52,613 nt of DNA, taken from NCBI GenBank assembly GCA_044337765.1, contig JBIIMX010000001.1, positions 1 to 52,613 of the forward strand. The letters are read 5' to 3'. This document shows, one piece after another, positions 9,377 to 51,199 of the stretch (positions are counted from its first letter, which is position 1; the number at the start of each line of letters is the position of its first letter). A program made the translations under genes and the position numbers. Source of the DNA: Pirellulales bacterium. Lineage in GTDB: Bacteria > Planctomycetota > Planctomycetia > Pirellulales > UBA1268. The notes beneath the pieces are model-generated. The model was not told the DNA's origin and made no database searches. It saw nothing but the letters and a program-made list of their open reading frames with translations.

Positions 9377-9377
9377 G

Positions 9378-28270: not shown

Positions 28271-28314
28271 ATGCTCACTTTTGCCCGTTGTCTCGTTGTC
28301 TCAGGAGAATCACC

Positions 28315-31856: not shown

Positions 31857-31873
31857 GTTTTCGCGGAGTAACA

Positions 31874-34420: not shown

Positions 34421-34438
34421 CAACGCAAGGAGTGCGTC

Positions 34439-37400
34439 GTGGGTGCTTCGTCCAAGGAGGAGCTTCGCAGCCAGCTCGCGAATGAATTTTCGCATGCAGC
34501 AGACCTGTATCGCCAGGTCGCAGGCTTACTCGAGCAGTCCGAACCCGGGCTGAGTCAGGTGTGTCGCGCTTTGCTGGCAGAGCCTCCGGGGTTTCAAGGG
34601 CAGCCCGACCAGATTGCTGATGAAGCAGCCAGCGACAAACCGCAACACGTTATCCACCTGATGCAATGGTGGGCAAGCTACGGTGACTTCGAGGCCGTGC
34701 TGATGAGCGCAGCACCGTCCACTGGAAAGCCGGGCTTTTTTGCTTCGAAGGACAAAGGCTTATCAAAGGCCAAGCTGGAGATCGCCCGTGCAAAGGTATA
34801 CGGCAATCAAGCATGCCGTCCTTTGAACTGGTATGTGCAGCTATCCAAGAGCACAGCCAAAGATAGTTTGTGCAGTGCGGCCGTAGCCGAGGCACTACGC
34901 GTCTATGCCAACGGGGATTGGAAGACGTTTGACGATCTCAAAGTTGATTTTTTCGATGCAGTTACTCGGTCGATCGGGTTGCGGATGCTCTTACTCTGCC
35001 GCCATGATCGGGGACTGTCTGAGAAGGATCTATGCGAACTCGCCGACCAACTGGGGCTCGCCGTCAACAGCGAGCCGGCATCGGAATCACCCGCTACTTC
35101 GGGCGCGGTCCGACCTGCATTGTGGGATTTTGAACGGTCGACAAGGAACATCCGTCCGGCGTTTCGAGTGTCCGGACACCTTCTGCCCGCCACATGCTTG
35201 GTCGCCAGGCCCAAGTCGTACCTGCGTATGGCATCGAAATACGAGAGCGACCAACATGCGTGGAAGCGGGAGAGGTTGATCAAGGCGGCACGGCACAGTT
35301 GGCCGAGCAGTCAAGATTTCGCCAAAAAGATCCTCGGCCTCTTGAGTACGCCCGAGAGGGCGCACAATGGCGTGTCCGCGCTAAAGGCCTTAGCAGGATT
35401 TCTTACACTTGCACTCGAGACCGCACCAGCCAAGGAGCAACTCAAGGAGAAGCAGTCAAACTTCTTCACGCAATTGCAGGAATGCTTGAAGGTAAGCGAT
35501 ACCCGGATACTCGCCGTACGTCCGAACACAGATCGAGCATTTCGTCGAGTTCCGTGTCGCACTGCCGAACAGGAAAACCGCATATGCTACTTGAAGATTG
35601 ACAGAGAAGATATCGCGATTGGGAAATTACGCAGGTGCGAAGCCGAAGACGACGTGTTCGATGCGGTGTGGCTGTACGACCTACACCTGTGGGCGGTCGA
35701 CGAGGTGTCGCAACGATCGAAGCACCTTGGGTACACGGCGTTGATGGCTGCCCTGAATCAAGCAGGCTGCTGGGACAATGCCTGGGAAGAGATCAAGAAA
35801 TCGTTGCTCGGCCTGACCTCTGATGCTTCGGCCGAGGCTATTGCGCAAGCGTTCTCCGCACTGTGGCCCCGCGTGCTAGCTTTTAGGGCTGTAGCGGCCA
35901 AGGAGAAGAGTGGTGCAGAGCAACTGTTTGATGAAGTGGATCAATTACTGAAGGAGATGGTCCACGCCACGCTTCAACTGCTTGAGAAGCGAGGCGGGAC
36001 CACCTTTCCGCCGCGATTCAGCAGGGTTGAGCAGGCTGGCGAAATCGATCTGAAGCAATGGCTGGCAGAGGACGGGCGCTGGCAGGATGGCCACAGTGTC
36101 GAGATTGAGGTGCGTTCCGGTGCAGGGCCGGAACTCGTGGAGGCAGCGGCTCCGACGCGGCTGCAAATGGACCTGCCGGGCTTCGATGAACACAACCCGC
36201 ACGATGTTCGACTTGTGAACATGCCGGGTGTCTTCTTCTGGCGCGGCGGTGATCCACCGCCCTACGTCCGACTTATTCACCAGCACGTCTGCGAGCCAAT
36301 CGTTGCAGCGTTCAGCGGCGGCAGTCCAGCCCCGGTTGATTTCGGCACAGCCCTGAAATCCCTGAGACAAGCTTTCTCATCGGGCGACGGAGCGAAAGCC
36401 TTCGACGGCTTGGTCAAGGCGGCTGTCGAAGGTAATGACAATGCCACAAGGTGGTTGGATTATTTAAAGGAGGAACCCCGCTTTCAACTCGACTGCTTCC
36501 CGAGGATCGAGAATCACGAGGGTAAATGGATACCGTCTGCCCCTGGCGGTGATGACGAGTACGTGCAGTGGGACTACGACGACAGATCCCCCAAAACATT
36601 GATCCGCGTGACGTATGCCATGAACTCAGCAGCCTCCGCCGCTGTTTTCAGCAAGGGTCCCCGGGATAAGTTTTTAGAACTAGCGGCTGCTGACGCTGTG
36701 AACCAATGGTGCGTGCGGGTTGGCGGCGAAGCTACCGAACGGGGCAATGACCTGCTCCGAGCAACGGAGCGGCATTGGGCGTTCGACCATCCGCTTGGCA
36801 CGACTGTTCGGCTTGCTGCTGAGTTGCTCGACCAAATCGGCGAGGCCGGCACCATCGGCAAAACTGTAGATCCGAGCGAAATCGACAAGCTTCGTGACGA
36901 CGGTTATCAGGCCCTGAAGGCCTGGCTCGCCGCTGTCGAGGGAGTCGTGACGCCCGACGACTGGTCGGCCCGGGAGGGGAGCGACCCTCGTGCGGAAGAC
37001 CGCGACACACTCTCGTGGGCTTTCAGTTCCTTGGTGCCGACAGGCCGCACCATCGTGCATGAGTTTGGTGTAAAAGCTTTCGACTACGAAAAGCCGTTTG
37101 CGGGCGCGCTGTCTGCTGGAAAGCCATTTCCGGGCTATGAAGAAATCGATGACATGTCACGCACGTTCTGGACTGGGGCGTGGGCAGAACTCGCAGCTAT
37201 GTGGAACCGTGTGCCTGGACTTTCGGACAAGAACAGACGCGCCCGCGTCCTGTACCAAATCTATCAGGATTTGTCGTTGCGAGAGACTAACGAGTCGGTT
37301 TCCTGGTACGCGAGTGCGAAGGACAAGCTTGTGTCGATTCTTGAAGCTGAGTTTGGATGGGAGCCGTTCCCAGATGAGGATGAAGTTGAGCTGGGGCCCT

Positions 37401-37540
37401 CTCTGGCGGTCGATCGAGTTGAGCTCGAGGACGGGCGAAAGGCTGTGAGCGGCGCAGTAGTGAAGGTAATCGCGAAGGGCTTCAAGCAACGAACTGACCG
37501 AGATGGCGTAACGCAGCCCGCCATCGTCAAACAAAAGTAA
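34439..37540 (+). CDS. Large orphan protein (1033 aa) with GrpE-like C-terminal tail
   Basis: Long uninterrupted ORF with ordinary composition, starting 18 nt after the Hsp70-like stop. No domain is recognised except the last roughly 70 aa (LEAEFGWEPFPDEDEVELGPSLAVDRVELEDGRKAVSGAVVKVIAKGFKQRTDRDGVTQPAIVKQK). This resembles the GrpE C-terminal beta-domain pattern FG.E......DP..H.A.......  G.V..V.QKGY......RPA.V.V. Confidence 0.75.
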   Translation: MGASSKEELRSQLANEFSHAADLYRQVAGLLEQSEPGLSQVCRALLAEPPGFQGQPDQIADEAASDKPQHVIHLMQWWASYGDFEAVLMSAAPSTGKPGFFASKDKGLSKAKLEIARAKVYGNQACRPLNWYVQLSKSTAKDSLCSAAVAEALRVYANGDWKTFDDLKVDFFDAVTRSIGLRMLLLCRHDRGLSEKDLCELADQLGLAVNSEPASESPATSGAVRPALWDFERSTRNIRPAFRVSGHLLPATCLVARPKSYLRMASKYESDQHAWKRERLIKAARHSWPSSQDFAKKILGLLSTPERAHNGVSALKALAGFLTLALETAPAKEQLKEKQSNFFTQLQECLKVSDTRILAVRPNTDRAFRRVPCRTAEQENRICYLKIDREDIAIGKLRRCEAEDDVFDAVWLYDLHLWAVDEVSQRSKHLGYTALMAALNQAGCWDNAWEEIKKSLLGLTSDASAEAIAQAFSALWPRVLAFRAVAAKEKSGAEQLFDEVDQLLKEMVHATLQLLEKRGGTTFPPRFSRVEQAGEIDLKQWLAEDGRWQDGHSVEIEVRSGAGPELVEAAAPTRLQMDLPGFDEHNPHDVRLVNMPGVFFWRGGDPPPYVRLIHQHVCEPIVAAFSGGSPAPVDFGTALKSLRQAFSSGDGAKAFDGLVKAAVEGNDNATRWLDYLKEEPRFQLDCFPRIENHEGKWIPSAPGGDDEYVQWDYDDRSPKTLIRVTYAMNSAASAAVFSKGPRDKFLELAAADAVNQWCVRVGGEATERGNDLLRATERHWAFDHPLGTTVRLAAELLDQIGEAGTIGKTVDPSEIDKLRDDGYQALKAWLAAVEGVVTPDDWSAREGSDPRAEDRDTLSWAFSSLVPTGRTIVHEFGVKAFDYEKPFAGALSAGKPFPGYEEIDDMSRTFWTGAWAELAAMWNRVPGLSDKNRRARVLYQIYQDLSLRETNESVSWYASAKDKLVSILEAEFGWEPFPDEDEVELGPSLAVDRVELEDGRKAVSGAVVKVIAKGFKQRTDRDGVTQPAIVKQK

Positions 37541-37573
37541 AGCCGGTGCACTAGGCCTGATTATGGAGATGGC

Positions 37574-38377
37574 ATGGGTTCGAATCTAAATGCGTTGATT
37601 AAGGAAGGTGTGGGCGGAGGCGCATCTTGGTGGCTCGACGCCCTAGGGATTGTCACGGGCATGATCGCGGCAGCTGTGATCATACTCATCGGGCGGCCCG
37701 CAGGCGGGTGGGCCCAGCAACTCGGGGCAGCCACGGTGATGGCGATCGGGATGTGTGCGGGCGCGGTCTTGCCGTTGCTGTGGCGAGTCGCCGGTGCCCG
37801 CTCCATAGGAAGCCGCTTGGCGGCGCAGCATGCTCCGCCTGACCCGAGTGGTCTTCGGAGTCGTTTTTCTGCGGGCGTATTTCAAGCCAGCAATTTGTCG
37901 CCCGATCGGTGCAGTTCCGAGGACTTACGGCGTGCCGCCGCGCACGCATCCGCCGAATTCGCACGGTTCGCGGCACGCACTGCGATTCCTGCTAGTTTCG
38001 TGGCGTTTCTGGCACCGGTGGTAGCGTTGGTTGGAGGCTGGAATGTGGCGAGGCAGGCCGGGCCGAACACCTATTCATTCCAGTCGATGGCACCGTCGAT
38101 GATCGCGGGAATCGCCTGCGCCGCCGTCGTGGTTCTGCTGATCGAGCTTTACGTGGTGGCCATGCGCGCAGCTCCGTCACGGTGGGCCACTTCCGTGGGT
38201 GGCTCGGGAACGACCAGTGTGCCTGATCATGGCTCAGGGTCGAAGTCAGGGGCCGGCGACGCCCCCCCGGATTTAAAATCAGGTTCTACGATCGACGTTC
38301 CGCCCGTAGCAAAGGGAATGTCGGTGGACGAGTTCACCAGACTATTTGATGGCCCGGGCACATCCGGCGATTCGTGA
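37574..38377 (+). CDS. Polytopic membrane protein, hypothetical
   Basis: 267 aa with at least four hydrophobic segments (LGIVTGMIAAAVIILIG, ATVMAIGMCAGAVLPLLW, FVAFLAPVVALVGGW, MIAGIACAAVVVLLIELYVV) and a Gly/Ser-rich tail. Its stop overlaps the C2 start (GTGA). Confidence 0.7.
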   Translation: MGSNLNALIKEGVGGGASWWLDALGIVTGMIAAAVIILIGRPAGGWAQQLGAATVMAIGMCAGAVLPLLWRVAGARSIGSRLAAQHAPPDPSGLRSRFSAGVFQASNLSPDRCSSEDLRRAAAHASAEFARFAARTAIPASFVAFLAPVVALVGGWNVARQAGPNTYSFQSMAPSMIAGIACAAVVVLLIELYVVAMRAAPSRWATSVGGSGTTSVPDHGSGSKSGAGDAPPDLKSGSTIDVPPVAKGMSVDEFTRLFDGPGTSGDS

Positions 38378-40158
38378 AGGTTACCGTGTCTCGTTCAGGC
38401 GAACCGCAGTTATCGCCGTTCATCATAGCCACGCCGTGGGCGGTGTGGGTCTACGTGTTGTCGCTCGTTTGCTGCCTTCTGCCTCAGGGCGAGAAAAGCG
38501 AGCCTTTAGAAAGATCCGTCCTCACCGTCTCGAACTCCACAGTTCATGTGCCTGAGAACGCACCAAATGGGCTCGCGAACGCGGTGGCTTTCGAACTAAG
38601 CAAGCCGCTCGACTTTCGCCTCGAGGTGCCGGTGACCGTGACTGACGGCTCGGCGAGGCTGGGGGAACACTACGCCATGCGGCGCCGGCCGCGGGTGATT
38701 TTCGAGGCAGGTTCCAAGCAGGGCGTGCTGTCTGGAGACGGCGATGGATGCGACGTGGTCATCACTGACGACCACGAACTGCTCGACGGGGAGCCACGCT
38801 CTTTCGACATCACGCTCGGAACGGTTGAAGGCATCGTGGAACTGGACGCGAGCCGATCGACGTGCCGCGTCAGCATCGATGATGACGAGAAACCACCCAC
38901 CTCTCGCGTCAAGATCCGGTTCGCTTTCAGTGGTGGCGAATTGACGGAGTCGCAGGTCGCAGGTCATTCGCTTTCGGTGCAAGCGGAAAAGGCCCCGGAG
39001 GAAAAGTCGGAGATGACCGTCGTCGTCCAACTGCAGTCCGGCAAGGAGCCGAAGGATCTTGGACGCAAGACTTTCTTCCTCGAACCAGGGCAGACCGCAC
39101 TCACGTTCCGCGTGTCCGACGTTGTGCCGCTCGAACAGCTGAAAGCCTTCGGCCTGACCGATGACGATGCTCCTGGGCCATCTTCGGAGATCATCGTGCG
39201 GCTGCGCGGCCAGCATCCGCTCTACGCCGACGAACCACGGGACCTTACGTTCCGGGTGACCGACAACGACCCAGCCGCGAAACTGTCCATGGCGATCCAA
39301 GACACGGCCGGCCAACCACTCGACCGAATCCTGCCCGGCTCCCCCTTCTGGGTCGTCGCCGATGTGGATCGCGGACTCCGCCTCGGATTGCCCCTTCAAA
39401 TCAACCTCGACAAGGGCGGCCCGATTGTCACCGGCACGCTCGCCGCAGGAGAGCGAAGCGTCCGTCTCGGACCACTGAGTGCAAGCCCGGGCCCTGAAAG
39501 GACGATCGAGGTCGCGATGGCGGTGCCCGCGAACGCGGCTGCGCGACCCTTCGTCGAGCTGCCCGTTCCCGAGAGTCTTCCCAAGGGGCCCAAGGACGAC
39601 AGTCGATTCGCGGTGATCGTCGTCAACACGTCGCGACTGCGGGAACCGGACAATGGCATCCTGGAGGCCGTGTGGAAATACATGATACCGAACGGAAAAT
39701 CTTCCTTCCGGAATGGCATGCTGCTCGTGGGGCCGGCGCGACCGAAGGTTCTTTCGGGAGAGACATTGCCGGTTGAGAGTGTGGGCTTCACCCCGCTCGT
39801 CAAGGACGGCCAGGGCGTCTCAGCGCAACTGAACAAGGTCTTGGAAGTCGTTTCGTACGTGCGGCAGGAGAACCAAGATCCCACCATCCGCATCGTCGTT
39901 GTCTGGGCAGAACGCGGCCTCGAATCGTCAGTCGCGGCATCCCGACTAAAGCCCATCGACCGGGAGAAGTATGGACCGATCTCGTTCCTCTGCCCGAGCG
40001 CTGACGTCGATGGCAGGGGTGCGATACGAGATGCCCTCGTCGGAGTCGGCAGCGCCGATGTCGAAAGCGTGACCGTTCGCTGCCCGGACGTGGACGAATT
40101 ATCCGAGCACATTCGCTGGGCGATCGATGGATTCCGAGCACCGGAAAAGACCAAGTGA
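38374..40158 (+). CDS. Exported/anchored protein C2 with Calx-beta-like repeats (paralog of C1)
   Basis: 594 aa with an N-terminal hydrophobic segment. Calx-beta-like unit: VPVTVTDGSARLGEHYAMRRRPRVIFEAGSKQGVL...VVITDDHELLDGEPRSFDITLGTVEG, with further similar units. The C-terminal two-thirds aligns with C1 (GSPFWVVADV, AGERSVRLGP, IRIVVVWAERGLE, ISFLCPSAD). Confidence 0.8.
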   Translation: MKVTVSRSGEPQLSPFIIATPWAVWVYVLSLVCCLLPQGEKSEPLERSVLTVSNSTVHVPENAPNGLANAVAFELSKPLDFRLEVPVTVTDGSARLGEHYAMRRRPRVIFEAGSKQGVLSGDGDGCDVVITDDHELLDGEPRSFDITLGTVEGIVELDASRSTCRVSIDDDEKPPTSRVKIRFAFSGGELTESQVAGHSLSVQAEKAPEEKSEMTVVVQLQSGKEPKDLGRKTFFLEPGQTALTFRVSDVVPLEQLKAFGLTDDDAPGPSSEIIVRLRGQHPLYADEPRDLTFRVTDNDPAAKLSMAIQDTAGQPLDRILPGSPFWVVADVDRGLRLGLPLQINLDKGGPIVTGTLAAGERSVRLGPLSASPGPERTIEVAMAVPANAAARPFVELPVPESLPKGPKDDSRFAVIVVNTSRLREPDNGILEAVWKYMIPNGKSSFRNGMLLVGPARPKVLSGETLPVESVGFTPLVKDGQGVSAQLNKVLEVVSYVRQENQDPTIRIVVVWAERGLESSVAASRLKPIDREKYGPISFLCPSADVDGRGAIRDALVGVGSADVESVTVRCPDVDELSEHIRWAIDGFRAPEKTK

Positions 40159-42149
40159 CACAATTCACGCTGCTGATTCGGACATCGTTTTTGGTATGTG
40201 TCGTCGCACCCGCCTGCATAGTGGCAGCAGGCGGACGGAATGCCCATGCGCAGAGCGGTGCGCCACGCGCATCGCCGCCATCGACCGCGGCACACACCAC
40301 GTTTGTGCCGGACACGCTGATCCCGCGGCTCGCCATGGGGGTGAGACGAGGAGTCAAGGACTCGAGAGAGGTCGCCGAATTGAGGGACCGACCGGGCGGT
40401 GCGATCGTAGGACGAGTTCCACTGTTTTCAGCGATGTTCGTCCACGCTGAACAACGACTCGACTCCCAGGACTGGGTTCTGCTCGCCAGCGGGTACGCGG
40501 GCGACAAGGCAGGCAAGCGGGGCTGGGTGCCCCGCTCCGATATCGAGGTGTTTTCAACCCGCTACGGCTACGTCTTGCACGACACGGGAAACGCGACGGA
40601 GTTTTTCCCGACGCCCGGGGACGCCTACGCGATCGTCCCCGGAATCGGCCCCAAGGGCCAAGCGACGCCCTCGCAGTCGGCCTCCGTGCTTGGGCGGCCG
40701 GACGCCGCTGGCTGGCAGCCGTTGCGGCGAACTGACCAGATGCCCTTCATGGAGTTGGAATTTGATCGGCGGTCTGGTTATCCGTCGACCACTCCATCGA
40801 TTGCGACGCCGTACGACGGCCGGCTTGTACGCGTCGGAGTCATTTGTGGCGGCCCGGTCGACAAGGTGGAGCTTGCGAGGCTCAAGGAAGAGGCCGACCG
40901 GAAGCCCGCGATCGAGATGTTGTTTGTCGTCGATGAGACGTTGAGTATGGGCCCATTCTTCCCTGGTGTGTCTGACTTCATCCGAGCGGTAGGCCAGGCG
41001 GCGGGCAACGGCCGGCAACCCCGAATCGCTGTTTCGTACTACACGGATGGACCAGCAGGTGAAAGAACGACCTGTGAGCCTTTGCGAAACGCGACGCCAC
41101 AGTTTGTCACGGCATTGGCGAATTCGGTGAAGCAGCACAAGCAGAAGATTCCCCCTGGAGACTTCATCAATCCGCCGGAGCGGATGCTTGAGGGGATGCG
41201 GGACGCGATCCAGAAGGCAGGATTTACAAAAGGTAACACGTCGATCGCCGTGGTGATCGGCGACACCGGCCACGAGCCGACGGACCCTGACAAGAAGAGA
41301 TTGCTCGACGGAGTGGCCGGAGTGGTTGCTGACCACGGCCTCATGGTCTTCTTCGTGCATGTAGGCCTAGCGAACAATCAAATGAACCCGGCTCAACAAC
41401 TGTTCAAGGATGACATGCTTGCATTGCAGACGCGTGTCGCCAAGCGTGACAAAGCTCTTGCCGATCGCGTCATATACACCACGGCGAATGCCGGCAACCT
41501 GACCGCGGAACTCGAGGGATTACGGCGCGAGGCTGACCGATTGGCCGAGCAGGCCCAGTTGATGGCTGGCCGTATCACCTCGCGCAACACCAACACGATG
41601 CCGGGGCCGGCCCTGGTCGCCACGATGAAGCAGGACGGCGTGACCTTGGCCCAATTCAACGACGCGCATCAGCAAATCTACGTGCCAAGCTATGCGTGGA
41701 TGGCATCACCGAGAGACGCGGGGGCGAATGGCGGATCTCGCGCCCGTCTGTCGAGATACATCTGCCTCGCCGCGGAGGAACAACAGGCACTCGCCGCCCT
41801 GCTGGAGTCGGCGCAGAGGAATGTTGACGCTGGATTGGCCGTCGATCACGACAATGCCGTGCAGGCGTTCGTGCAGTCGCTGCGGGCTGCAACGACGGGC
41901 TCAGCCGCCGTGGAAGCCGCTCACGCGAACTGGAAGAAACTGGGGCCCGATCGAACGGCCGGCGGATTTCTCCACAAATTCCTTGGCCTCGGCATCCAAG
42001 CAGAGATGCTTTTCAGTTCGAGCCCACCAGGCAACACTGAAGAGATGGCCGATGCGAAAAACTCACTGCAGGCCCTGACGACCGTGGTACGCGAGGCCAG
42101 CCGTGACAAAGACAGGTTTTGGTTCGAGGCCACCAGCCTGGCGCCATGA
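40155..42149 (+). CDS. Exported vWA domain protein V2 (paralog of V1)
   Basis: 664 aa. Signal-like FLVCVVAPACIVAAG. MIDAS-like MLFVVDETLSM and VIGDTGHEPTDP. Shares LAMGVRR, ICGGPVD, NPPERMLEGMRD and FWFEATSLAP with V1. GTGA overlap with C2. Confidence 0.8.
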   Translation: MTQFTLLIRTSFLVCVVAPACIVAAGGRNAHAQSGAPRASPPSTAAHTTFVPDTLIPRLAMGVRRGVKDSREVAELRDRPGGAIVGRVPLFSAMFVHAEQRLDSQDWVLLASGYAGDKAGKRGWVPRSDIEVFSTRYGYVLHDTGNATEFFPTPGDAYAIVPGIGPKGQATPSQSASVLGRPDAAGWQPLRRTDQMPFMELEFDRRSGYPSTTPSIATPYDGRLVRVGVICGGPVDKVELARLKEEADRKPAIEMLFVVDETLSMGPFFPGVSDFIRAVGQAAGNGRQPRIAVSYYTDGPAGERTTCEPLRNATPQFVTALANSVKQHKQKIPPGDFINPPERMLEGMRDAIQKAGFTKGNTSIAVVIGDTGHEPTDPDKKRLLDGVAGVVADHGLMVFFVHVGLANNQMNPAQQLFKDDMLALQTRVAKRDKALADRVIYTTANAGNLTAELEGLRREADRLAEQAQLMAGRITSRNTNTMPGPALVATMKQDGVTLAQFNDAHQQIYVPSYAWMASPRDAGANGGSRARLSRYICLAAEEQQALAALLESAQRNVDAGLAVDHDNAVQAFVQSLRAATTGSAAVEAAHANWKKLGPDRTAGGFLHKFLGLGIQAEMLFSSSPPGNTEEMADAKNSLQALTTVVREASRDKDRFWFEATSLAP

Positions 42150-42765: not shown

Positions 42766-42932
42766 CTCAAATTTCCGAGTTTAAAAGACCTTAGCTCAGG
42801 AAGATGGGTTGTCAAGTTGGGACGGCGCGCCACCCTGCATGGCTGACAACCCGCCTGGCACCAAGTGGGGTATCTGTATTTCCAATGCGGGCTACCATCT
42901 CTTGTTCTTATCTGCCTTTTTGAAGGCAGCCA

Positions 42933-43616
42933 TCAGAACCGGGCTCCCGCAGCCCCGACGGCGAGCGCCCACCAGACCCCCGTCGTCACGCACCCGAGCG
43001 TACCAATACCGCCGAGGATTGCACCCGCGATCGCCAGGCCGCGATTCGCCTGATTCGTCCCGTTTAAAGCAACGAGACTCAAAATAAACCCCAGTGGTGC
43101 GGTGCAGCCGAGCATGGAGAGTACGAACCCGGCAATGGCCATGCCGTTGGATGCTTCCGCTTTTGGCTCTTCCCCCTTTCCGACGAACAGAGCCAATTCA
43201 GGAATCGATCGTACGACGACCCACTTATCCCACCCCTGTTTGCAGACAACATCGTCTTTTTTGATGATGCCGCTGGCCAGATACTGCTGCAGGGTTGCAA
43301 GAGGCACCGGGTCCGGTTGCTGCGTGCCGTGCAGCACGATAAACCAAAGATCCTGGCTTGGGCTTAGCTCGGGGTTGGTTATCGCAGGCACCGAGGCCCC
43401 GTTCTCAATTACGGGCGCGGGGACAACACTCGGTTTCCGGAATATCTCCGGAAAATCACCGGCCTTTCTCCAGTCAACGCCGTCTCGCGAAACTTCCGAA
43501 CGGCTGCCCACCATGCCACGTTGCACTCGCTGCTGCATCTCGGACAGCGCAAATGGACCGAGCGTACTGCCTCGCACCCGGAAGAAATAGGGACGGGAAT
43601 CGCCTGTATCGTTCAT
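42933..43616 (-). CDS. Tandem GYF_2 (DUF4339) domains + DUF4190-like membrane domain protein
   Basis: I use the internal ATG at 43616 (MNDTGDSRPYFFRVRGSTLGPFALSEMQQRVQRGMVGSRSEVSRDGVDWRKAGDFPEIF). Second GYF_2: LWFIVLHGTQQPDPVPLATLQQYLASGIIKKDDVVCKQGWDKWVVVRSIPELA. The C-terminal Gly/Ala-rich double-TM region (GMAIAGFVLSMLG...GLAIAGAILGGIG) is typical of DUF4190. Confidence 0.7.
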   Translation of the reverse strand: MNDTGDSRPYFFRVRGSTLGPFALSEMQQRVQRGMVGSRSEVSRDGVDWRKAGDFPEIFRKPSVVPAPVIENGASVPAITNPELSPSQDLWFIVLHGTQQPDPVPLATLQQYLASGIIKKDDVVCKQGWDKWVVVRSIPELALFVGKGEEPKAEASNGMAIAGFVLSMLGCTAPLGFILSLVALNGTNQANRGLAIAGAILGGIGTLGCVTTGVWWALAVGAAGARF

Positions 43617-43656
43617 AGCGGGTAGCTCGCACAACCAAGAGGCGTCACCGGGTAGA

Positions 43657-45051
43657 TCATGCCCCTGACCGCCTGACCGCAGATATGAAGAAGACGCCAA
43701 CGACAAAAAGAATAAACACGAGCAGCAGGCCAACAACGGCGGCGATCGCAATTTTTTCCTTGTAAACGATGCGATCACGGCTCGCTTTCACCAAGTTACG
43801 GCAGGCCTCGAGTTCGGCGAGGCGAGCATTCGTCGAGGTGGGCACCAAGCCCGGACTCCTTTCGCACAGCCTTTTCGTCGCAATACGCAGGTCGCTCTCA
43901 CGTCGTAGCCACTCCGCGGACCGCTGCTTGAACTCCTCCCAGCCGACTGCAGATTCGGGGGCTTTTTCGATCAGTTTCTGAATGTCGTCTTCTTTCTTGC
44001 CGAATGCCGCCCTTCCTTCCTCGAACTGCTCCTGTTGGGCAAGCCACGCGAGCGACTGCTTGGCCGACTTTTCGACCGCCTTTGCCTGCTCGAGAAACTT
44101 CATTTCGATGGCGACCGCTGACGTCTCCGGCACCGAATTGGCAAGCTGCAGTGCCTGGACGAAGTCTTTTCGGAGCGAGAGAAAATGCCCCTTCGCCTGG
44201 ATCGCGGCATTGAGCATCACTGGAAACGAAGGCGAGTAGACATTTTGAATGTGGGACAAGTCGCGACACCTCACTGCGAGCAGCGAGGCGGCCTCCTCGA
44301 GCGAATGAATTCCGTCGCGACATGTAAAAAGGTGTGGCACGGCCTTGGTGAGCGCGGCAAGAGGTCCTGAGAGCTGCCCCTCCCAGTCCACGGCTTTCAC
44401 CTCCTCAATAAGGCGCGCAAGTTTCGTAAAGTTCCGTGTCTCAATTGCAGCGCGGACTTCCGCCTCAATCTGACCGGCTCGCTGGCGGCGGATCGGCGCA
44501 ATCATGTCGGTCCAGATTCCGCGGCCCGGGTCGATATTGCGGATCGAGGTGAGGAGCGTCAGCCGCGTGCCAAGATCACCACGAAGGAGGACATTTCTCC
44601 GGAACGCATCGAGTTGATCTTTCAACCAGTGACCGGAGACGCTCTGGGAGGACAATTCCTCGAACATGGCGCCTACCATGCCCCGAAGTTCGCGGTCGAA
44701 CTGCGGCACCGAAACTTCACGTGCATCGAGCGCTTCCTTCCAAGCCGCCCAGCCATCCCTGTCAAATGGCTCGAGCAGTCGCTCTCCCACTTCGAAGAAG
44801 CCCTCAGCGTGCCACTGCTTCGCCTCGTCGCGCAGTCCACGGCTGGCGAGTTGCCAGCACGTATAGAGTGATGCATTCCACTCATCGACAGCCTCCGTCC
44901 ACTCCGCCATCCGGCCTATCAAAAGATCCATACCTGTTTCGCCGCCTATATCGAGAGCGGTTTTGACCGCGGCAGCAATCTCGCGCCACTGCTCCAGCCG
45001 CTCATACGTGATGGCCGGAGGCGTGCCCGTGTTTCCGTCGGGTGGACTCAT
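43657..45051 (-). CDS. All-helical, C-terminally tail-anchored protein (possible GTPase-associated helical component)
   Basis: 464 aa. Composition suggests a helix-rich protein. Single C-terminal TM (IAIAAVVGLLLVFILFVVGVFFISAV). ATGA overlap with the upstream GAP1-like gene. Confidence 0.65.
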   Translation of the reverse strand: MSPPDGNTGTPPAITYERLEQWREIAAAVKTALDIGGETGMDLLIGRMAEWTEAVDEWNASLYTCWQLASRGLRDEAKQWHAEGFFEVGERLLEPFDRDGWAAWKEALDAREVSVPQFDRELRGMVGAMFEELSSQSVSGHWLKDQLDAFRRNVLLRGDLGTRLTLLTSIRNIDPGRGIWTDMIAPIRRQRAGQIEAEVRAAIETRNFTKLARLIEEVKAVDWEGQLSGPLAALTKAVPHLFTCRDGIHSLEEAASLLAVRCRDLSHIQNVYSPSFPVMLNAAIQAKGHFLSLRKDFVQALQLANSVPETSAVAIEMKFLEQAKAVEKSAKQSLAWLAQQEQFEEGRAAFGKKEDDIQKLIEKAPESAVGWEEFKQRSAEWLRRESDLRIATKRLCERSPGLVPTSTNARLAELEACRNLVKASRDRIVYKEKIAIAAVVGLLLVFILFVVGVFFISAVRRSGA

Positions 45052-48000
45052 TGTCTCTGCTCGTCAGGTTGCGTGACCTTGACTTCCTTCCCGCCATGCT
45101 TGATCTCGAATCGTTTCACTGGGATCGGGCCGCCCTCCTGCGGCATTTTCCAAAGAAGCGAGAGCGTCGCCGACACAAGAGTCTCGAGCAAGATCTCGCT
45201 GCACTCCTTTTTCACCGGGTCTACCTTGTCATGCAACGCGATCCAGGCATCGATGCCGAGAACAGCGCGGGCGAAGTCATGCGGGTCGGTGTCGCCATCT
45301 TGACCTGGTGACTCATCAAGAAACCTCGCCAGCCAGAGCGGCGAGCACAGCCATTGGTCTAAATCCGCATTCCACTCCTCAATGGCTTTATCAGTCGATA
45401 CTTTCGTTGCGTCATACTTGCTCTTGGCGATCTTGTACTTGTTCATAGCTTCAGCGTCGGCCTCTGATGCCGGCGCTTCGGGGGGCGGCGGCGACTGCGG
45501 TCGCTTGCCACGTTCCCTCACAAACGCTGCTTGTACAAACGCATGAAACGGGCCTTCCTGTTTTTTTACAAAATCAAACGCTTGATCCCGCCAGGCCTGC
45601 AGCCTCATCTTTTGCTCAGTTGGTTTGAGCGAGAGAGCCGTGTCGATCTTTTTCTCAAGGGCATCGACCGTATTTTTGGGATTGCGATGGCCTTCATCGA
45701 GCATCACTTTGAACAGTCGCACGAATTTGTCTCGGTTCCATTCGGCGGAGAGCGGTGGCCATGGCTGGGTCAGGTCCCGAGCTTTGAAACGGGTGACGCG
45801 AGCGGTCCATGGCTGGGAGTCCTTCCGCGACAGGAGAACAGTGAGTCCGCCGTCAGCGGCGTCGAACTTACTCTCCAGTGATTCGAGCCATACGCGGCGA
45901 CCTTTGTTGGCATCGCCGTCGGCGATGGTGCACCATAGGTCTGTCGTGCTTTCCAGTGAGCCATTGCCTGCACGGGTTTCCAATTCCAATACACGGGTGC
46001 CGTTCGGGCGGCCGCTGTTCAACGTCATCTTGAGCACATTCGGTCCGCCGAGTAGCGAAGGGGCGACTTTCAGAGACTGACTCATCTTCAAGGAAACAGC
46101 GTCACCAGTGAGTACGTCGGAGAGGCTACAACTCTGTCCATCGGCGCGACTTGCCTCTACCTCGTCCGGCGCGGCGACGGCGGGGAGTGTGATCAGTTGC
46201 GGTGTCGGGCTGGCATCGGATGCAAAAATGAAAGGAACATAGAGATGGTCCCGAGGCTCGTTCGCGCCCAGCTCGGATTTGAAGGTCAAATTCCCCTTCC
46301 CTCGGTCGAGCCTCACTGTCCCCCAATGTTTGTGCAAGTCGTCAGGCAGGCCCGTCAACTTCCAGATCCGCTGGTCTCCTGCTTCAGCCGACGGCGACTC
46401 CACCTTGGGCTTCCAATTACCAACGGATGGCAAGGACAGTGTGAACGTGAGATTCTTGGCATCCAGATCGGACGCGAGAATCACCGGCTTGGCATCAATT
46501 TCTCCGCTTGGCCTTGGCTCATACTGGATGAGTGCTTCCTGGAGTGCAGTGAATGCCTGACTGGCCAACTCGGCTGGGGAGAACTGAGGCATTTGATCGG
46601 GCGTGGACTCGATCACAGAGGTTTTCTCCTTGGCGATCGCTTGATCGATGGCCGCAACAGAACTGTTGAGTGTGTTGGCCGCGTCGTTGTAGGTCAGGCC
46701 GGCTTTATTCGCGGCAAGTGTCTCTCGAAATCGTTGCATGATCTTTGACCGAGTAGCCGGCGGAAGTCGGCCAGGCCAGAGAAATTCCACTGACGCCTCA
46801 CCCAATACCTGCCGCAACTTTCCCTGCGGCTTGTCGAAGGCCGCAGCCACGACCTGTGTTGCGGCATCGATGGCCCGTTGCAGCGAGTTGACGTCGCGCA
46901 CCTTCGGCGGCTTTGCGTTCGCCGCAATCCAGCCCGCTACGAGACTTGCGACGGCAGTTCGAGCTTGGCCCTCCTCAGGGGCAGTGACATGTACCCCGAG
47001 CTTTTCGGCGTTTGTGAGCACATCCTTGCCTTGCAGTACGCCCTGCACCGCGGACAGCAGGTCTGAACGTCGTTGTGCCGATTCAACACGAGATCTGTCG
47101 ATCGCCTTGGTCGCCAGAGCGCTCAGAAGTAATGAGAACTCGGTTTCTACCGGAATGTTATTGTCGTCCCAGAATGCGTGCTGCCATTCCCCGAGCGTCG
47201 GCTGAGTATCTCCTGAGAAGGGCTTTCCGACATCGGAGTCGGCATACGCGTAGATCTTGTCTTGGCAGCCTTTCGCGGCCAGTACGTCCAACCAATACCA
47301 CACGGCGACCGAACCAGCGACAAGCACGATGGCCGCCAGCAACGTGCTGCAGAGAATATACCAGTGAAGCCGCGACTTCGGCTCATCCTCATCCCAACTG
47401 CCCGGCGCCGTCGGCGGGCGATGCGAATGAACCATCGCCTGTCCGGCCGCCGTCTGACCGACCGGCAACATCGGCCCCGCAGCCTCTTCCAGCGACGGCG
47501 GCATGCTCGGGCCCCGGGAAGGCGCACGCGCCACAGACTGCTTCGGTCCCTGTCGCGCGACGGCGACAAAATCATCCGCGGCCAGATTGGCGGGCACGGG
47601 GTTACGGCTCGACAGATCAACGATCAGCAAGCCGGCATGCCCGGCCGCGGATTCGGGACTCCCAGCGTACGTTCCGCGGAACGACGACAAAGAACTGCCT
47701 ATGACGGTGGTGTCGAACGTAGTGCGCCACCGGTTGTCGGGAGGAAGAAGGGCAAACGCTTCTTGAAAAAGCTCCAACAGGGTTCGGCACCAGGCAGGCG
47801 AGCAATCGGGCGCGATCACCAGCGATGGCTGGCCACGCATCGCCCGCTGCGCAAGTACTCCACCCCAACCGGCGTCGCCCGTCACGCCCTCCCAGCGATG
47901 ACAGACAGCGGGCTGCACGGGCGGCGCCGAGAGTGCGAAGGGGGCGGCTCGTTCTTCCGGGCCGCCCTTCCAGACAGTCGCAAGCCGCGCCTCGTTCGCG

Positions 48001-48341
48001 GCGAGCACGGCCGCCGGCGAGGAATTCCGGAGAGCCGCCATTTCGTTGGGATCCACGGCCAGCAGGTGCGACAGTTTGTTTGATCTGTTTGAAAAGTCGA
48101 TACCAGCATCAACTGTGCGACCGAGCACGTTGAGTTGCCCGGTGGCCCCACGCACAGAGCGAAAACTGTAGATCACCGGATTTCGGCCACTTCCCTGCGG
48201 GATGTGCCGATACACAGCCAACTGCTCGAGGCTCGTCATCAAGTCGTCGCTGACGCCAGCCGTGCGCATGACGGTCTGAAACCCGGTACGACCATGTTTT
48301 ACGCCGCGAGGGACGCTCGTAACGACGATTTCCTTTGCCAT
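45048..48341 (-). CDS. GAP1-like (GTPase-associated protein 1-like) large membrane protein
   Basis: I use the ATG at 48341 (MAKEIVVTSVPRGVKHGRTGFQTVMRTAGVSDDL...), 22 nt after the GTPase stop. This N-terminus follows the pattern I recall for GAP1-N domains (hydrophobic-x-YTS..RGL..G..GFQ.VA.S.G). Central TM WYILCSTLLAAIVLVAGSVAVWYWL, then a long C-terminal region. The listed ORF extends to 48383. Confidence 0.6.
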   Translation of the reverse strand: MAKEIVVTSVPRGVKHGRTGFQTVMRTAGVSDDLMTSLEQLAVYRHIPQGSGRNPVIYSFRSVRGATGQLNVLGRTVDAGIDFSNRSNKLSHLLAVDPNEMAALRNSSPAAVLAANEARLATVWKGGPEERAAPFALSAPPVQPAVCHRWEGVTGDAGWGGVLAQRAMRGQPSLVIAPDCSPAWCRTLLELFQEAFALLPPDNRWRTTFDTTVIGSSLSSFRGTYAGSPESAAGHAGLLIVDLSSRNPVPANLAADDFVAVARQGPKQSVARAPSRGPSMPPSLEEAAGPMLPVGQTAAGQAMVHSHRPPTAPGSWDEDEPKSRLHWYILCSTLLAAIVLVAGSVAVWYWLDVLAAKGCQDKIYAYADSDVGKPFSGDTQPTLGEWQHAFWDDNNIPVETEFSLLLSALATKAIDRSRVESAQRRSDLLSAVQGVLQGKDVLTNAEKLGVHVTAPEEGQARTAVASLVAGWIAANAKPPKVRDVNSLQRAIDAATQVVAAAFDKPQGKLRQVLGEASVEFLWPGRLPPATRSKIMQRFRETLAANKAGLTYNDAANTLNSSVAAIDQAIAKEKTSVIESTPDQMPQFSPAELASQAFTALQEALIQYEPRPSGEIDAKPVILASDLDAKNLTFTLSLPSVGNWKPKVESPSAEAGDQRIWKLTGLPDDLHKHWGTVRLDRGKGNLTFKSELGANEPRDHLYVPFIFASDASPTPQLITLPAVAAPDEVEASRADGQSCSLSDVLTGDAVSLKMSQSLKVAPSLLGGPNVLKMTLNSGRPNGTRVLELETRAGNGSLESTTDLWCTIADGDANKGRRVWLESLESKFDAADGGLTVLLSRKDSQPWTARVTRFKARDLTQPWPPLSAEWNRDKFVRLFKVMLDEGHRNPKNTVDALEKKIDTALSLKPTEQKMRLQAWRDQAFDFVKKQEGPFHAFVQAAFVRERGKRPQSPPPPEAPASEADAEAMNKYKIAKSKYDATKVSTDKAIEEWNADLDQWLCSPLWLARFLDESPGQDGDTDPHDFARAVLGIDAWIALHDKVDPVKKECSEILLETLVSATLSLLWKMPQEGGPIPVKRFEIKHGGKEVKVTQPDEQRQ

Positions 48342-48363
48342 AAAACAAATGCACCGTGGTTCG

Positions 48364-49674
48364 TTAGCAATGGGGACCGACAAGGAGGTGGGGAACGCAT
48401 ACGTGCATCAGAATGAGAAGCGGCACCTCCGACCACATCGGCTTGATGTTTCCAGCGAGGTGGTAGTAGCCCTGCTCGTCCTTCCCGGTCGGTGGACAGC
48501 CCGTCGCACTCACCGGCACGAAAAACGTCAAGTCGGGATCGCAGTATGTTTCGATGCGCGACAGCATCGAAGCGGCATAATTGGACATCATTTTGCGACA
48601 GGCATCCGAAACCCTCTTTACGATCTCGAATTCAAAGGCGACGCGATCATCACCGTTGCTGGCAGCTTCGACACCCTGCCACAGGTCTGGAAGCCGATCT
48701 ATGTTGGTGAGCGAGTTCCAGGCATCGAATTTGGCGATGGCGACAATCAGCGGTTTTCTCACGCGCTCGCTTTCTGACAATCCGGCGAACCGCTGGACTC
48801 GTTGCATCGCGGAACTGAATAGTGACTGCTGCTGGCTCATGCGTGAGTCTGTCCACTGCAGGTCTTCGCTTTTTTGGGAACAAGCCTGCCGGAATGAGTT
48901 TTCCTGAGTTGGATCGAACACGAACATCAGCCCATCCGCCTTGGACATATGCCGCGTGACAGGACTTTCCTCTCTCTCCATCCCAGGCTCGAAACTCTCT
49001 CCGGCATTGTCGTAGATTCGCAGGATACGCCCCGCCTCCGACCCGGCAGCATGCGCAGGATGCCCCGCCATGGCGTCGAGCTTAAACAGGAACGGTTTGG
49101 GCAGAAGCTTTGTGCGTCTTCCGAATGCCACCCTCGTATACCAGTCCCCCTCGAGGTCGGTCTTCAAGAGCCGCACCTTGGTGCTGGGAGTAGGCGCCTT
49201 GAAGAGTTGGGACTGGTAGTCCCTGATAATCACGTTGGTTTCAGCGTCTGCGTCGTCGATGGAGATGCGACATTTGTCGAGCCTTTGCTCCGCCTGATAG
49301 GTCATCGATGTCAGCAGGTACGATTTACTGCTCGACGGCGATCCGAAGATCGAGAGGGCGAGCGTGCGGCGTGTGGCCAACACACGCGGCACCTTCAAAT
49401 GGCAGTTTGGGCACGCCGTTTCCGTGCACACGCCGCCAAGCGGATCAACCGCATCGCCTTGGATCGTAAACTGGCTTGGCAGAAACCGGCGGTACGCTCC
49501 ATCGGGTAACCGATGGTCAAATGCGAGTTCGGCGCTGGTCGCGATGAAGTGCATCTGCTCCGGAGGAAACTCGTGCCAGCAGTGCGGACAGACTATCGTG
49601 TCGAGGAGAAACCCTTCATCGGATCTGGATTCCATTTTTATGAAGCACAATGGAGCCGTAAGGGGGTGGCACAT
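48364..49674 (-). CDS. Zinc-ribbon-fused TRAFAC-type P-loop GTPase
   Basis: 436 aa. Zinc ribbon CPHCWHEF...CPNCHLKV. G1 SIFGSPSSSKSYL, G3 RIYDNAGESF, G4-like VAIAKFDAW, G5-like VPVSATG. The start may instead be the ATG at 49635 (MESRSDEGF...). Confidence 0.75.
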   Translation of the reverse strand: MCHPLTAPLCFIKMESRSDEGFLLDTIVCPHCWHEFPPEQMHFIATSAELAFDHRLPDGAYRRFLPSQFTIQGDAVDPLGGVCTETACPNCHLKVPRVLATRRTLALSIFGSPSSSKSYLLTSMTYQAEQRLDKCRISIDDADAETNVIIRDYQSQLFKAPTPSTKVRLLKTDLEGDWYTRVAFGRRTKLLPKPFLFKLDAMAGHPAHAAGSEAGRILRIYDNAGESFEPGMEREESPVTRHMSKADGLMFVFDPTQENSFRQACSQKSEDLQWTDSRMSQQQSLFSSAMQRVQRFAGLSESERVRKPLIVAIAKFDAWNSLTNIDRLPDLWQGVEAASNGDDRVAFEFEIVKRVSDACRKMMSNYAASMLSRIETYCDPDLTFFVPVSATGCPPTGKDEQGYYHLAGNIKPMWSEVPLLILMHVCVPHLLVGPHC

Positions 49675-49886
49675 CGCGTGACAAGCTAGTATTCTCGGGG
49701 GGATAAAGGGAATCTGTCAAGGCTTCGCAGCGGGCGAAACACGAAAGACACGCGGGTCGAAGGCGTTGTGGATCCCCGCGGCGGAGTCTCACTCGCGTGC
49801 GTTCCCTGAGTCGCAAGGCACTTCAACCACCGAATTCGCTGCCATGACAATCGCTTTGCACACTCGCTTGACGCGGAGTCGACGGC

Positions 49887-50672
49887 ATGAGTGAAGAGTG
49901 GTACGTCGGCAGAGGTGGACGGCAGACAGGCCCCTTCACTCTGCAGCAATTGAGGCAGATGGCAGCCTCTGGCCATTTGTCGAAGGCCGATCTGATTTGG
50001 AAGGACGGTTTTCCGAACTGGGTTCCTTGCTCGTCAGTCACTGATCTCTTTCCATCGGCTTCGGGTGTTTCCCCCACGTCATTGCATCGGCCTACACCCA
50101 GGCCAACGGCGCCACCTCCATCAGTTTCGGTGCGAAGCGAGGAAGGCCTTGGCACTTCGGAGGCGTCCACAGGAGCGGACCCGGGTTGGGCATTCCAGAC
50201 AACGCCCAACGCGGCCACAATTCCTGGCGCACCACTTCAACTTGCGGAATTTCTACCACGGGTCGGAGCCGCATTGCTCGACGGGCTGTTTGTCAGCCTG
50301 ATCGGCTGCATTCCGAACGGGGTTATTGTCGGACTTCTGTTGGCCGCCATCAACAATAACCGCGACAATGCCGAAGCTCTGGCTTTTCTGGCCAACATTT
50401 TCACCAGTGCCATCGGATTCCTCATTGGGGTCGTCTACTGCGTCACACTTGATGCCTCTGCCAAACAGGGTACGTGGGGCAAGCAGATCGTCGGCCTCCG
50501 AGTGACCGACCTTGATGGCCGCAGGCTCAGCATCGGCCGCGCCATCGGCCGTTTCTTTGCACGTTATCTCACCATCTGCACATGCGGTATCGGCTACCTG
50601 CTTCCACTGTTCACACAAAAGAGGCAGACACTGCACGACCTGATATGCGGCTGCATTGTTGTCAACAAATGA
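49887..50672 (+). CDS. GYF_2 (DUF4339) + RDD family membrane protein
   Basis: EEWYVGRGGRQTGPFTLQQLRQMAASGHLSKADLIWKDGFPNWVPCSSVTDLF is the GYF_2 domain. The RDD domain shows RVGAALLDGLFVSLI...GTWGKQIVGLRVTDLDGRRLSIGRAIGRFFARYL. Confidence 0.75.
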   Translation: MSEEWYVGRGGRQTGPFTLQQLRQMAASGHLSKADLIWKDGFPNWVPCSSVTDLFPSASGVSPTSLHRPTPRPTAPPPSVSVRSEEGLGTSEASTGADPGWAFQTTPNAATIPGAPLQLAEFLPRVGAALLDGLFVSLIGCIPNGVIVGLLLAAINNNRDNAEALAFLANIFTSAIGFLIGVVYCVTLDASAKQGTWGKQIVGLRVTDLDGRRLSIGRAIGRFFARYLTICTCGIGYLLPLFTQKRQTLHDLICGCIVVNK

Positions 50673-50692
50673 TCGCGGCATCCGGCAGATCG

Positions 50693-51199
50693 ATGACTCC
50701 AGCCGGCCACCACGAGGAGCCGATCCTGGAACAACGGCGGTCACCGCCGCCGCTTCCCCGTTCCGCACCCTCTCGAGCAGAGCGCGGGGCAGCCGGGGGG
50801 TTCGCGTTGCTTGGATGCCTCGTTTTTACGGTGGCGGCGATCCTTTGCCCCTATGACCCGGAAGGTCGGCCACTTTCACACGGCACTCACCGACAGCTTG
50901 GCTTGCCACCCTGCGCCATACAGGCACTCACAGGCCTTCCCTGTCCCTCCTGTGGCATGACGACGAGCATTTCGCTCGTCATGCACGGCGACCTTGCAGC
51001 TGCGAGCGAGGCCAACTCAGCCGGGCTCATCGTGGCGGGCCTCGGTTTGTTTACGACTGTCTGGCTGGCAGCCGTGGCGGCCGGGATGCCCGCTGGCACA
51101 TTCACCGTAGATGAGACGATCAAATGGCTCACCGTCGCAGGTACGACAGCCGCAATGCTCCGCTGGCTCGCATTGGCGGCCACATGGCTTGGACAGTGA
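50693..51199 (+). CDS. DUF2752 domain membrane protein
   Basis: I use the internal ATG at 50693. The CP.CG motif (LTGLPCPSCGMTTS) is followed by hydrophobic helices, typical of DUF2752. Confidence 0.6.
   Translation: MTPAGHHEEPILEQRRSPPPLPRSAPSRAERGAAGGFALLGCLVFTVAAILCPYDPEGRPLSHGTHRQLGLPPCAIQALTGLPCPSCGMTTSISLVMHGDLAAASEANSAGLIVAGLGLFTTVWLAAVAAGMPAGTFTVDETIKWLTVAGTTAAMLRWLALAATWLGQ

Follow-up and report, generated by a model that had tools for sequence, protein, structure and literature searches.

The closest described relatives of the locus reported here are the "GTPase-centric systems", which were defined computationally by Kaur, Burroughs, Iyer and Aravind (eLife 2020, PMC7159879) and whose signature is a constant core of genes accompanied by a variable array. 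According to these authors, the DO-GTPases of such systems have a glutamate in Walker B and N-terminal zinc ribbons, usually two, and a GAP1 gene of type N1 or N2 lies downstream of them. GASH proteins occur only in the N1 systems and are mutually exclusive with N2, and fibronectin type III (FNIII) repeat proteins are found in N2 systems. The N2 systems are enriched in planctomycetes among other phyla, their GAP1-N2 protein is frequently fused to transmembrane (TM) segments, and the classification allows for variable C-terminal fusions and TM segments of GAP1. A planctomycete variant with a twin-GYF/TM partner is described apart from the other N2 systems, and genes for HSP70 and vWA proteins are named as linked themes of N2 systems in actinobacteria and firmicutes, not in planctomycetes. 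As a class, GTPase-centric systems were predicted to be regulated conflict systems (PMC7159879). Here we describe a four-gene GTPase cassette found at positions 42933-49674, on the minus strand, of a 52,613-nucleotide stretch of DNA from a Pirellulales bacterium (assembly GCA_044337765.1, contig JBIIMX010000001.1, positions 1 to 52,613), which was analysed at its full length and which we call the window. A first-pass annotation of the window, made from the letters of the sequence, had supposed that no member of this class had been characterised experimentally, and our literature search likewise found no experimental study of DO-GTPase or GAP1 proteins.

We found that the cassette is very probably a member of the planctomycete GYF variant of DO-GTPase2/GAP1-N2 systems that Kaur et al. 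described in 2020. Like the GAP1-N2 systems, the window contains a zinc-ribbon GTPase with a Walker B glutamate that is directly followed by a GAP1-N2 protein, the GAP1 protein is fused to a TM helix, the host is a planctomycete, and the constant core stands beside variable genes that include HSP70-like and vWA proteins. It differs from them in having one GTPase instead of two, a single four-cysteine ribbon instead of two, and no sequence-detectable FNIII-repeat protein. We treat the missing FNIII protein as a variant difference and not as an exclusion from the family, because the paper treats the planctomycete GYF-coupled systems separately. The membrane architecture and the GYF_2 partner had been considered atypical by the first-pass annotation, a view that we do not share, since TM-fused GAP1-N2 proteins are frequent in the 2020 paper and the same layout is found in all 41 of the loci in which it could be compared.

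The open reading frame (ORF) list of the window confirms four co-directional minus-strand ORFs at 42933-49674. In their longest versions these are gene 1 at 48364-49674 (436 aa), gene 2 at 45048-48383 (1111 aa, from a TTG), gene 3 at 43657-45051 (464 aa) and gene 4 at 42933-43778 (281 aa, from a GTG). Because the lengths and N-termini of homologs agree on them, we chose internal starts for three of the four genes. Gene 1 likely starts at M14, at position 49635, which gives 423 aa (homologs have about 424 aa), as opposed to the 436 aa obtained from the upstream ATG at 49674. The likely start of gene 2 is the ATG at 48341, which gives a protein of 1097 aa beginning with MAKEIVV (close homologs all begin with MAKEI), and that of gene 4 is the ATG at 43616, which gives 227 aa beginning with MNDTGD (homologs have 225-235 aa). 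Gene 3 likely starts at 45051. With these starts the coordinates agree exactly with the tight linkage and the junctions that had been claimed: a 22-nt gap between genes 1 and 2, or a 20-nt overlap if the TTG start is used, an ATGA overlap of genes 2 and 3 at 45048-45051, and a 40-nt gap between genes 3 and 4.

Gene 1 (48364..49635, minus strand) encodes a soluble zinc-ribbon P-loop GTPase of 423 aa, as identified from Pfam and from an alignment of homologs. The motifs on which the same assignment had first been made, GSPSSSKS, DNAGE, AKFD, SAT, CPHC and CPNC, are all found in gene 1 and proved to be invariant in an alignment of 15 homologs that reach down to 39% identity. Invariant positions are K104-S105 in Walker A, D209, G212 and E213 in Walker B (DxxGE), K302-x-D304, and S376, T378 and G379 (SxTG), together with the four cysteines C16, C19, C75 and C78 (423-aa numbering) of the CPHC...CPNC zinc ribbon (49399..49590, minus strand), which holds a conserved insert of about 55 aa with the motif RRFLP. 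DO-GTPase2 (PF19993) is the top family for 13 of the 15 aligned relatives (best E = 2.5e-7), and a precomputed PF19993 tag is carried by many homologs at 40-58% identity. Because its relatives match DO-GTPase2, gene 1 is, as judged by transitive homology, a divergent member of this family. No TM helix is predicted in gene 1 by hydropathy; its last 20 or so residues are hydrophobic and conserved, and may serve as a membrane tether.

Gene 2 (45048..48341, minus strand) encodes a single-pass GAP1-type membrane protein of 1097 aa, according to Pfam, hydropathy, alignment and a structure model. Its residues 1-116 (47994..48341) match Pfam GAP1-N2 (PF20013) with 64.3 bits (E = 1.6e-17, cutoff 24), which substantiates the GAP1-N signature noted by the first-pass annotation and sets its type as N2. 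A GAP1-M-like region (PF20014, cutoff 24) follows at residues 147-211 (47709..47903), and the gene 2 ortholog of Rhodopirellula baltica lies above both cutoffs, with 97.6 bits for GAP1-N2 and 52.3 bits for GAP1-M. No further GAP1 model of Pfam matched gene 2 at E <= 0.1; after GAP1-M come a proline-rich linker, the TM helix and an unrelated ectodomain. The linker (residues 261-328, 47358..47561) is adjacent to the membrane on its cytoplasmic side and contains the conserved prolines P274, P278, P281, P282, P293, P309, P310 and P313. Across the gene 2 family, proline-rich stretches commonly occur on both sides of the TM helix, and we regard the linker of gene 2 as a candidate GYF ligand. The central TM helix that had been claimed is also the only one given by hydropathy (residues 329-347, 47301..47357), and it keeps its position near residues 330-360 throughout the family.

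The remaining 750 or so residues of gene 2 (45051..47300) form the ectodomain, which was delimited from the structure model and from identity comparisons. It is modelled as a helical part (residues ~380-605), a beta-rich part (~620-840) and a second helical part (~870-1050), with a predicted local distance difference test score (pLDDT) of roughly 70-87. Foldseek returned no significant fold match for the gene 2 model, with weak FN3/Ig-like hints in the beta-rich part (best E = 0.12), and sequence searches of genes 1-3 against solved structures gave no match. Within the window's clade, the identity of gene 2 homologs is 79-86% over N2 and M, 62-76% over the proline-rich linker and 29-55% over the ectodomain. 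The ectodomain of gene 2 evolves fast compared with its conserved cytoplasmic N2+M module.

Gene 3 (43657..45051, minus strand; 464 aa) was modelled confidently as an all-helical protein (pLDDT 83.5) with a C-terminal TM anchor predicted by hydropathy at residues 438-456 (43684-43740), in line with its earlier description as helix-rich with a C-terminal membrane anchor. It has no match in Pfam (E <= 0.1, apart from a chance-level one to CHASE3), NCBIfam or PADLOC, and a Foldseek search of its model against the PDB gave nothing significant (best E = 0.029, TM-score below 0.25). A profile of gene 3 retrieved 517 cluster representatives among 1.84 billion. The family falls into four length classes, of about 375, 460, 665 and 970-1050 aa, with a shared core made of an N-terminal part of about 250 aa followed by the TM helix; in the long forms about 600 aa more follow past the TM helix. 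The idea that the gene 2 ectodomain of the window is the ectodomain of these long gene 3 forms, acquired by a domain swap, was rejected (hhalign probability 0.1%). A member of the gene 3 family is present in every related cassette, namely in all 41 loci whose sequence extends far enough. Gene 3 is thus the fourth constant component of the sampled loci, one that the text of Kaur et al. 2020 does not name.

An all-helical third protein next to a DO-GTPase and GAP1 core is also what the GAP1-N1/GASH systems have, and gene 3 had been proposed as an analog of GASH. We dropped this proposal, since the GAP1 protein here is of type N2, where GASH is excluded, and since neither gene 3 nor any of 32 relatives tested matches any Pfam family. 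Furthermore, the effectors of the N1 systems (calcineurin-like, TIR, PNPase) are absent here.

Gene 4 (42933..43616, minus strand; 227 aa) encodes, according to Pfam and hydropathy, a protein in which two GYF_2 domains precede a hairpin of two TM helices. The GYF_2 match of 74.4 bits in two stretches agrees with the domain content read at first; the DUF4190 part of that reading corresponds to the TM hairpin (42984-43127), which is DUF4190-like with 29.3 bits, below the cutoff of 35. A gene 4 GYF protein is present in all 41 loci. Among bacterial GYF domains, that of GltJ was shown to bind a proline-rich sequence as part of a membrane complex under GTPase control (Attia et al., Sci Adv 2024, PMC11135422).

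We examined how widely this cassette is conserved. A search of a clustered protein database gave 1065 homologs of the GTPase at E <= 1e-3, and at least 576 genomes of a collection with one representative genome per species encode a relative of it. The loci that we retrieved are Planctomycetota without exception (80 of 80), from Pirellulales, Planctomycetales, Gemmatales and Phycisphaerae, and the cultured carriers include Rhodopirellula, Stieleria, Botrimarina and Allorhodopirellula. Homologs of GAP1, gene 3 and the GYF gene were detected with iterated hidden Markov model (HMM) searches of the six-frame ORFs of the first 85 loci, 81 of which have a GAP1 homolog. Where at least 10.5 kb of sequence follows the GTPase start, which is the case for 41 loci, the order 1-2-3-4 on one strand is found every time (41 of 41), at GTPase identities from 87% down to 35%; this neighbourhood comparison bears out the expectation that the four genes are conserved together.

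In a neighbour-joining tree of the GTPases, the main clade, which has long gene 3 forms, groups by taxonomy, with separate clusters for Pirellulaceae, Thermoguttaceae, Lacipirellulaceae, Planctomycetaceae and Phycisphaerae. This grouping by taxonomy indicates mostly vertical descent of the main cassette form. The cassette of the window falls in a separate, paralogous clade, in which gene 3 has about 460 aa and gene 2 about 1100 aa, and one metagenome-assembled genome carries at least two paralogous cassettes, which belong to different clades (loci L007 and L012).

The genes that follow the core differ between these clades. In 25 of the 41 loci, a MotA/TolQ/ExbB gene (Pfam MotA/ExbB, 46.5 bits) and two more genes come after the cassette, as in L022 (17730-20351) and L004 (18176-20956). 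Each of the two partners has one N-terminal TM helix that contains an aspartate (FQDIITSVTG..., LLDAISNTFGG...), followed by a coiled coil. Judged by these sequences, the trio looks like a stator unit of the ExbB/ExbD type, with an aspartate-bearing TM helix as in ExbD, TolR and MotB. Other recurrent neighbours of the main type are a Ser/Thr kinase (13 loci), a TPR-trypsin protein (10 loci) and a GYF_2-vWA protein (8 loci). Examples of the kinase, the TPR-trypsin-like peptidase and the GYF_2-vWA protein, which lie upstream or downstream, are found in L023 (5612-8518), L070 (353-2623) and L078 (18918-20300). HMMs built from the relatives detected no stator trio, Ser/Thr kinase, TPR-trypsin or GYF-vWA neighbour in the window. 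The main text of Kaur et al. 2020 says nothing of MotA, ExbB, TolQ or dynamin, so neither the stator trio nor the dynamin-like partner described below appears there.

In the window, the place beside the cassette is taken by an array of eight genes, A-H (26807..42149, plus strand), which is convergent with the cassette and was recognised from motifs, weak profile matches and its adjacency in relatives. The array encodes A (487 aa), the secreted protein B (456 aa), a dynamin-like GTPase, C (700 aa, 29754-31856), with dynamin-type G1 and DLPG motifs, an HSP70/actin-fold ATPase, D (848 aa, 31874-34420), with all three nucleotide-binding motifs of the HSP70/actin fold, E (1033 aa), F (267 aa, four TM helices), the secreted protein G (594 aa), and H (664 aa), a secreted vWA protein with a metal ion-dependent adhesion site (MIDAS) motif. 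No Pfam family matched the array proteins above cutoff except for a partial HSP70 match, and a sequence search with C and D against solved structures returned only a partial DnaK match for D. In PADLOC, C gives a weak match to LeoBC, which belongs to the Eleos defence system.

Array genes adjoin the cassette in several relatives. In L001, L088, L089 and contigs of P0003 and P0020 they come after gene 4 and share its strand; in L010, whose GTPase is only 42% identical, they lie upstream of gene 1, again on the strand of the cassette; and in the window they are convergent with the cassette. An array also adjoins the cassette in L086. No array was found beside the cassette in L090, L002 and L008. 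When the window is compared with L088/L089, identity is 57-85% for the cassette proteins and only 29-40% for A-D, and L087 has a closer version of the window's array (63% identity for D). Divergent versions of the array, at least two, thus stand beside near-identical cassettes. A metagenome scan with protein D yielded one contig, of 5.7 kb, which is too short to judge linkage.

Beyond the gene order, domains, conserved motifs, topology features, co-conservation and unequal rates of evolution that were observed, we infer a set of protein-protein contacts, a direction of signalling and a biological role. We estimate an even chance that the cassette encodes a switch complex that is driven by GTP and sits at the cytoplasmic membrane. 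In such a complex the soluble zinc-ribbon GTPase (gene 1) would dock on gene 2 at its cytoplasmic GAP1-N2/M module, and a cue from outside the cytoplasm would be sensed by the ectodomain, the part of gene 2 that evolves fast. The gene 3 protein, helical and tail-anchored, and the twin-GYF gene 4 protein would act as constant membrane-anchored adaptors, with the GYF domains of gene 4 probably binding proline-rich linkers such as that beside the TM helix of gene 2. GTP binding and hydrolysis would set a threshold or timer and pass the signal to lineage-specific output modules, which may be the dynamin-like/HSP70-like/vWA array in the window's clade and the MotA/ExbB stator-like unit in most planctomycetes. 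The role that we favour, and hold only tentatively at somewhat less than even odds, is envelope surveillance against invaders or competitors, as predicted in 2020. We lean slightly towards conflict because of the published classification, the fast ectodomain, the divergent arrays, the several paralogs per genome and the weakly LeoBC-like dynamin. For the whole explanation, a membrane GTPase switch for envelope surveillance with its role included, we estimate a probability of about 0.45.

Several of our observations weigh against this explanation, some of them at the level of family membership and some at the level of role. Gene 1 itself reaches 18.4-18.6 bits with the DO-GTPase2 profile, the sole Pfam family that it matched, and the cutoff is 27; the GAP1-M region of gene 2 has 18 bits, also below cutoff; the N-terminal 322 residues of the gene 2 model are unreliable (pLDDT below 40) because the alignment lacks diversity; and fn3 of Pfam has no match in gene 2, gene 3 or the 32 gene 3 relatives, a negative by sequence that leaves room for divergent FNIII repeats in the ectodomains of the long gene 3 forms, which were not modelled. 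An alternative is that gene 1 is an ordinary housekeeping TRAFAC GTPase of the Era/Der/Obg-like kind and that the cluster is a chance neighbourhood, and one of the 15 aligned GTPases does match MMR_HSR1, marginally (E = 0.0058). We find this hardly credible, with DO-GTPase2 as the top family of 13 of the 15, no NCBIfam match for gene 1, an invariant Walker B glutamate and zinc ribbon, and a GTPase gene that is strictly linked to those for GAP1-N2, gene 3 and the GYF protein. With respect to role, genes 1-4 have no match in PADLOC-DB v2.0.0 (E <= 0.1), the cassette contains no recognisable toxin or enzymatic effector, no relative of the GTPase was found in plasmid or phage collections (weak evidence, as planctomycete replicons are scarce there), and the main form is constant through the phylum and follows taxonomy, which is unusual for mobile defence islands. 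The same facts, together with the presence in at least 576 species-representative genomes and in Planctomycetota only (80 of 80 retrieved loci), the family-by-family GTPase tree of the main clade, the four-gene core fixed in 41 of 41 loci and the MotA/ExbB gene with two Asp-TM genes after the cassette in 25 of 41, would also suit a lineage-specific planctomycete envelope machine built from the same parts with the same switch logic. Such a machine could serve surface transport, uptake, envelope remodelling, motility or division, with the GTPase controlling, in space or in time, a membrane complex driven by the proton-motive force.

An analog of such a machine exists in the gliding of Myxococcus xanthus, which combines MglA-GTP, the zinc-ribbon GYF protein GltJ and AglRQS, a motor of the TolQ/ExbB type. 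There, GYF membrane proteins are adaptors in the GTPase-regulated Agl-Glt machine, and GltJ, a membrane protein whose GYF and zinc-ribbon modules are cytoplasmic, was proposed to pass a signal across the membrane (PMC11135422). The cassette shares with it a GYF membrane protein, a GTPase switch and, in relatives, a TolQ/ExbB-type motor gene. The two differ in that the zinc ribbon is on the GYF protein there and on the GTPase here, in that MglA is Ras-like and gene 1 a DO-GTPase, which is not MglA-like, and in that no MglB, AglZ or Glt homolog is present here and the window has no stator gene; the likeness lies in the logic, not in a common descent of the system as a whole. Nor can the stator tell a machine from a defence role, because MotA/ExbB-type units also serve defence in Zorya. 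The MotA/ExbB channel of the relatives matches ZorA, and array protein C matches LeoBC, weakly and at the level of generic domains (13-21 bits), and ZorB, ZorC, ZorD and LeoA are all absent. Fast-diverging ectodomains and arrays, and several paralogous cassettes per genome, fit an arms race or surface recognition better than they fit a cellular machine, and the window's own clade lacks the stator trio. We therefore consider the envelope machine a distinct possibility whose chances are well short of even. Its most specific form, in which the cassette would be a phylum-wide, vertically inherited machine whose GTPase and GYF adaptors control a proton-driven MotA/ExbB-ExbD-like stator, and the window's clade a paralog in which a membrane-remodelling array of dynamin-like, HSP70-like and vWA proteins has replaced the stator, appears less likely than not to us; if true, it would give a first handle on uncharacterised planctomycete cell biology.

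A different alternative concerns the extent of the system and not its role, and is compatible with immunity as well as with an envelope machine. The cassette, with its GYF-RDD and DUF2752 neighbours, may be self-contained, and the array A-H a separate set of genes that is nearby only through shared regional ancestry. The array is missing beside the cassette in L090, the GTPase of which is 83% identical, and in L002 and L008, it is on the opposite strand in the window, its rate of divergence is very unlike that of the cassette, and most planctomycete cassettes have no such array. Its adjacency is nonetheless kept in three arrangements and with at least two divergent array versions, and Kaur et al. 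report HSP70 and vWA genes linked to GAP1-N2 in other phyla. We conclude that the array is probably linked to the cassette, and we take its separateness as a serious alternative that falls short of an even chance.

Should the membrane switch prove to be an immune sensor, bacterial immunity would come to include a membrane-bound GTPase switch without an enzymatic effector; should it prove to be a cellular machine, a phylum with poorly understood cell biology would gain a new envelope system under GTPase control. The planctomycete form is a good test case for either, as it is widespread, has a fixed four-gene core and occurs in cultured strains (Rhodopirellula, Stieleria, Botrimarina). Taken alone, the window contributes hardly more than a further member. 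More comes from the wider comparison, in which the universal gene 3 family, the association with a stator trio, the variable array and the vertical inheritance together make the question of conflict versus cell biology testable.

Upstream of gene 1, and divergent from the cassette, lie two plus-strand genes, a pair that the window's clade retains beside its cassettes. Gene J (49887..50672) encodes a GYF_2 and RDD membrane protein of 261 aa (RDD 77.6 bits, GYF_2 61.7 bits), whose homologs beside the cassette in L001, L086 and L088-L090 are 59-69% identical. J also matches the C-terminal part of PD-T4-6 in PADLOC. Gene K (50669..51199, 53.3 bits) encodes a DUF2752 membrane protein with a likely start at 50669 (176 aa; homologs 168-176 aa), and overlaps J by an ATGA at the J stop codon. 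In L089 (7259-8558), L090 (3902-5294) and a contig of P0003, where the GTPases are 83-85% identical, two extra membrane-protein genes lie between the GTPase and GYF-RDD genes, one for a TM2-domain protein (152 aa) and one for a second GYF_2/DUF4190 protein (181-185 aa). The window has only a 212-nt intergenic region at this place and neither of the two extra genes.

A promoter-like sequence, TTGACA-18-GAGAAT, lies upstream of gene 1 (49691..49720, minus strand), and is weak, as one such site was found against 2.1 expected by chance. At the other end of the cassette, 3 nt past the stop codon of gene 4, direct reading gives a 7-bp hairpin, CTGCCTT-CAAA-AAGGCAG (42912..42929, minus strand), which has no T-run and may mark the end of the operon. 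A consensus terminator scan did not report this hairpin, and the counts of terminators and promoters in the scan are not above chance. Between gene 4 and the end of the array lies an ORF of 198 aa (42169-42765, minus strand) with a signal-peptide-like N-terminus; no homolog was found in any related locus and no family match was obtained, it may be lineage-specific or no gene, and we left it out of the system.

Before the array, the minus-strand genes m_561 and m_660 (23002..26666) are a paralogous G/H pair, as recognised by sequence comparison and motifs. The m_660 protein aligns with H along its full length at 33% identity and contains a vWA MIDAS motif, DDTVS, and one member of the pair contains a long Cys/Gly-rich low-complexity stretch. 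Further away (20089-22248, plus strand), a protein of 719 aa has weak squalene-hopene-cyclase/prenyltransferase-like repeats; homologs occur near the cassette in L086 and L036, which may be plain synteny.

Separate from the GTPase cassette, the window contains a small integrated mobile element (8038-15786) at a tRNA-Arg(ccg) gene (8038-8113). Minus-strand genes in the element encode a tyrosine integrase (8066-9376), a DUF3987/Toprim primase-helicase (10190-12628; 234.9 bits) and a Caudovirus prohead protease S78 (13954-14637). TTCGATCCCTGTCGAGGGTATTGG, the 24-nt 3′ end of the tRNA (8093-8116), recurs without change at 15742-15765, so that att-like boundaries lie about 7.65 kb from each other, and the GC content of the element (62-68%) is above that of the rest of the window.

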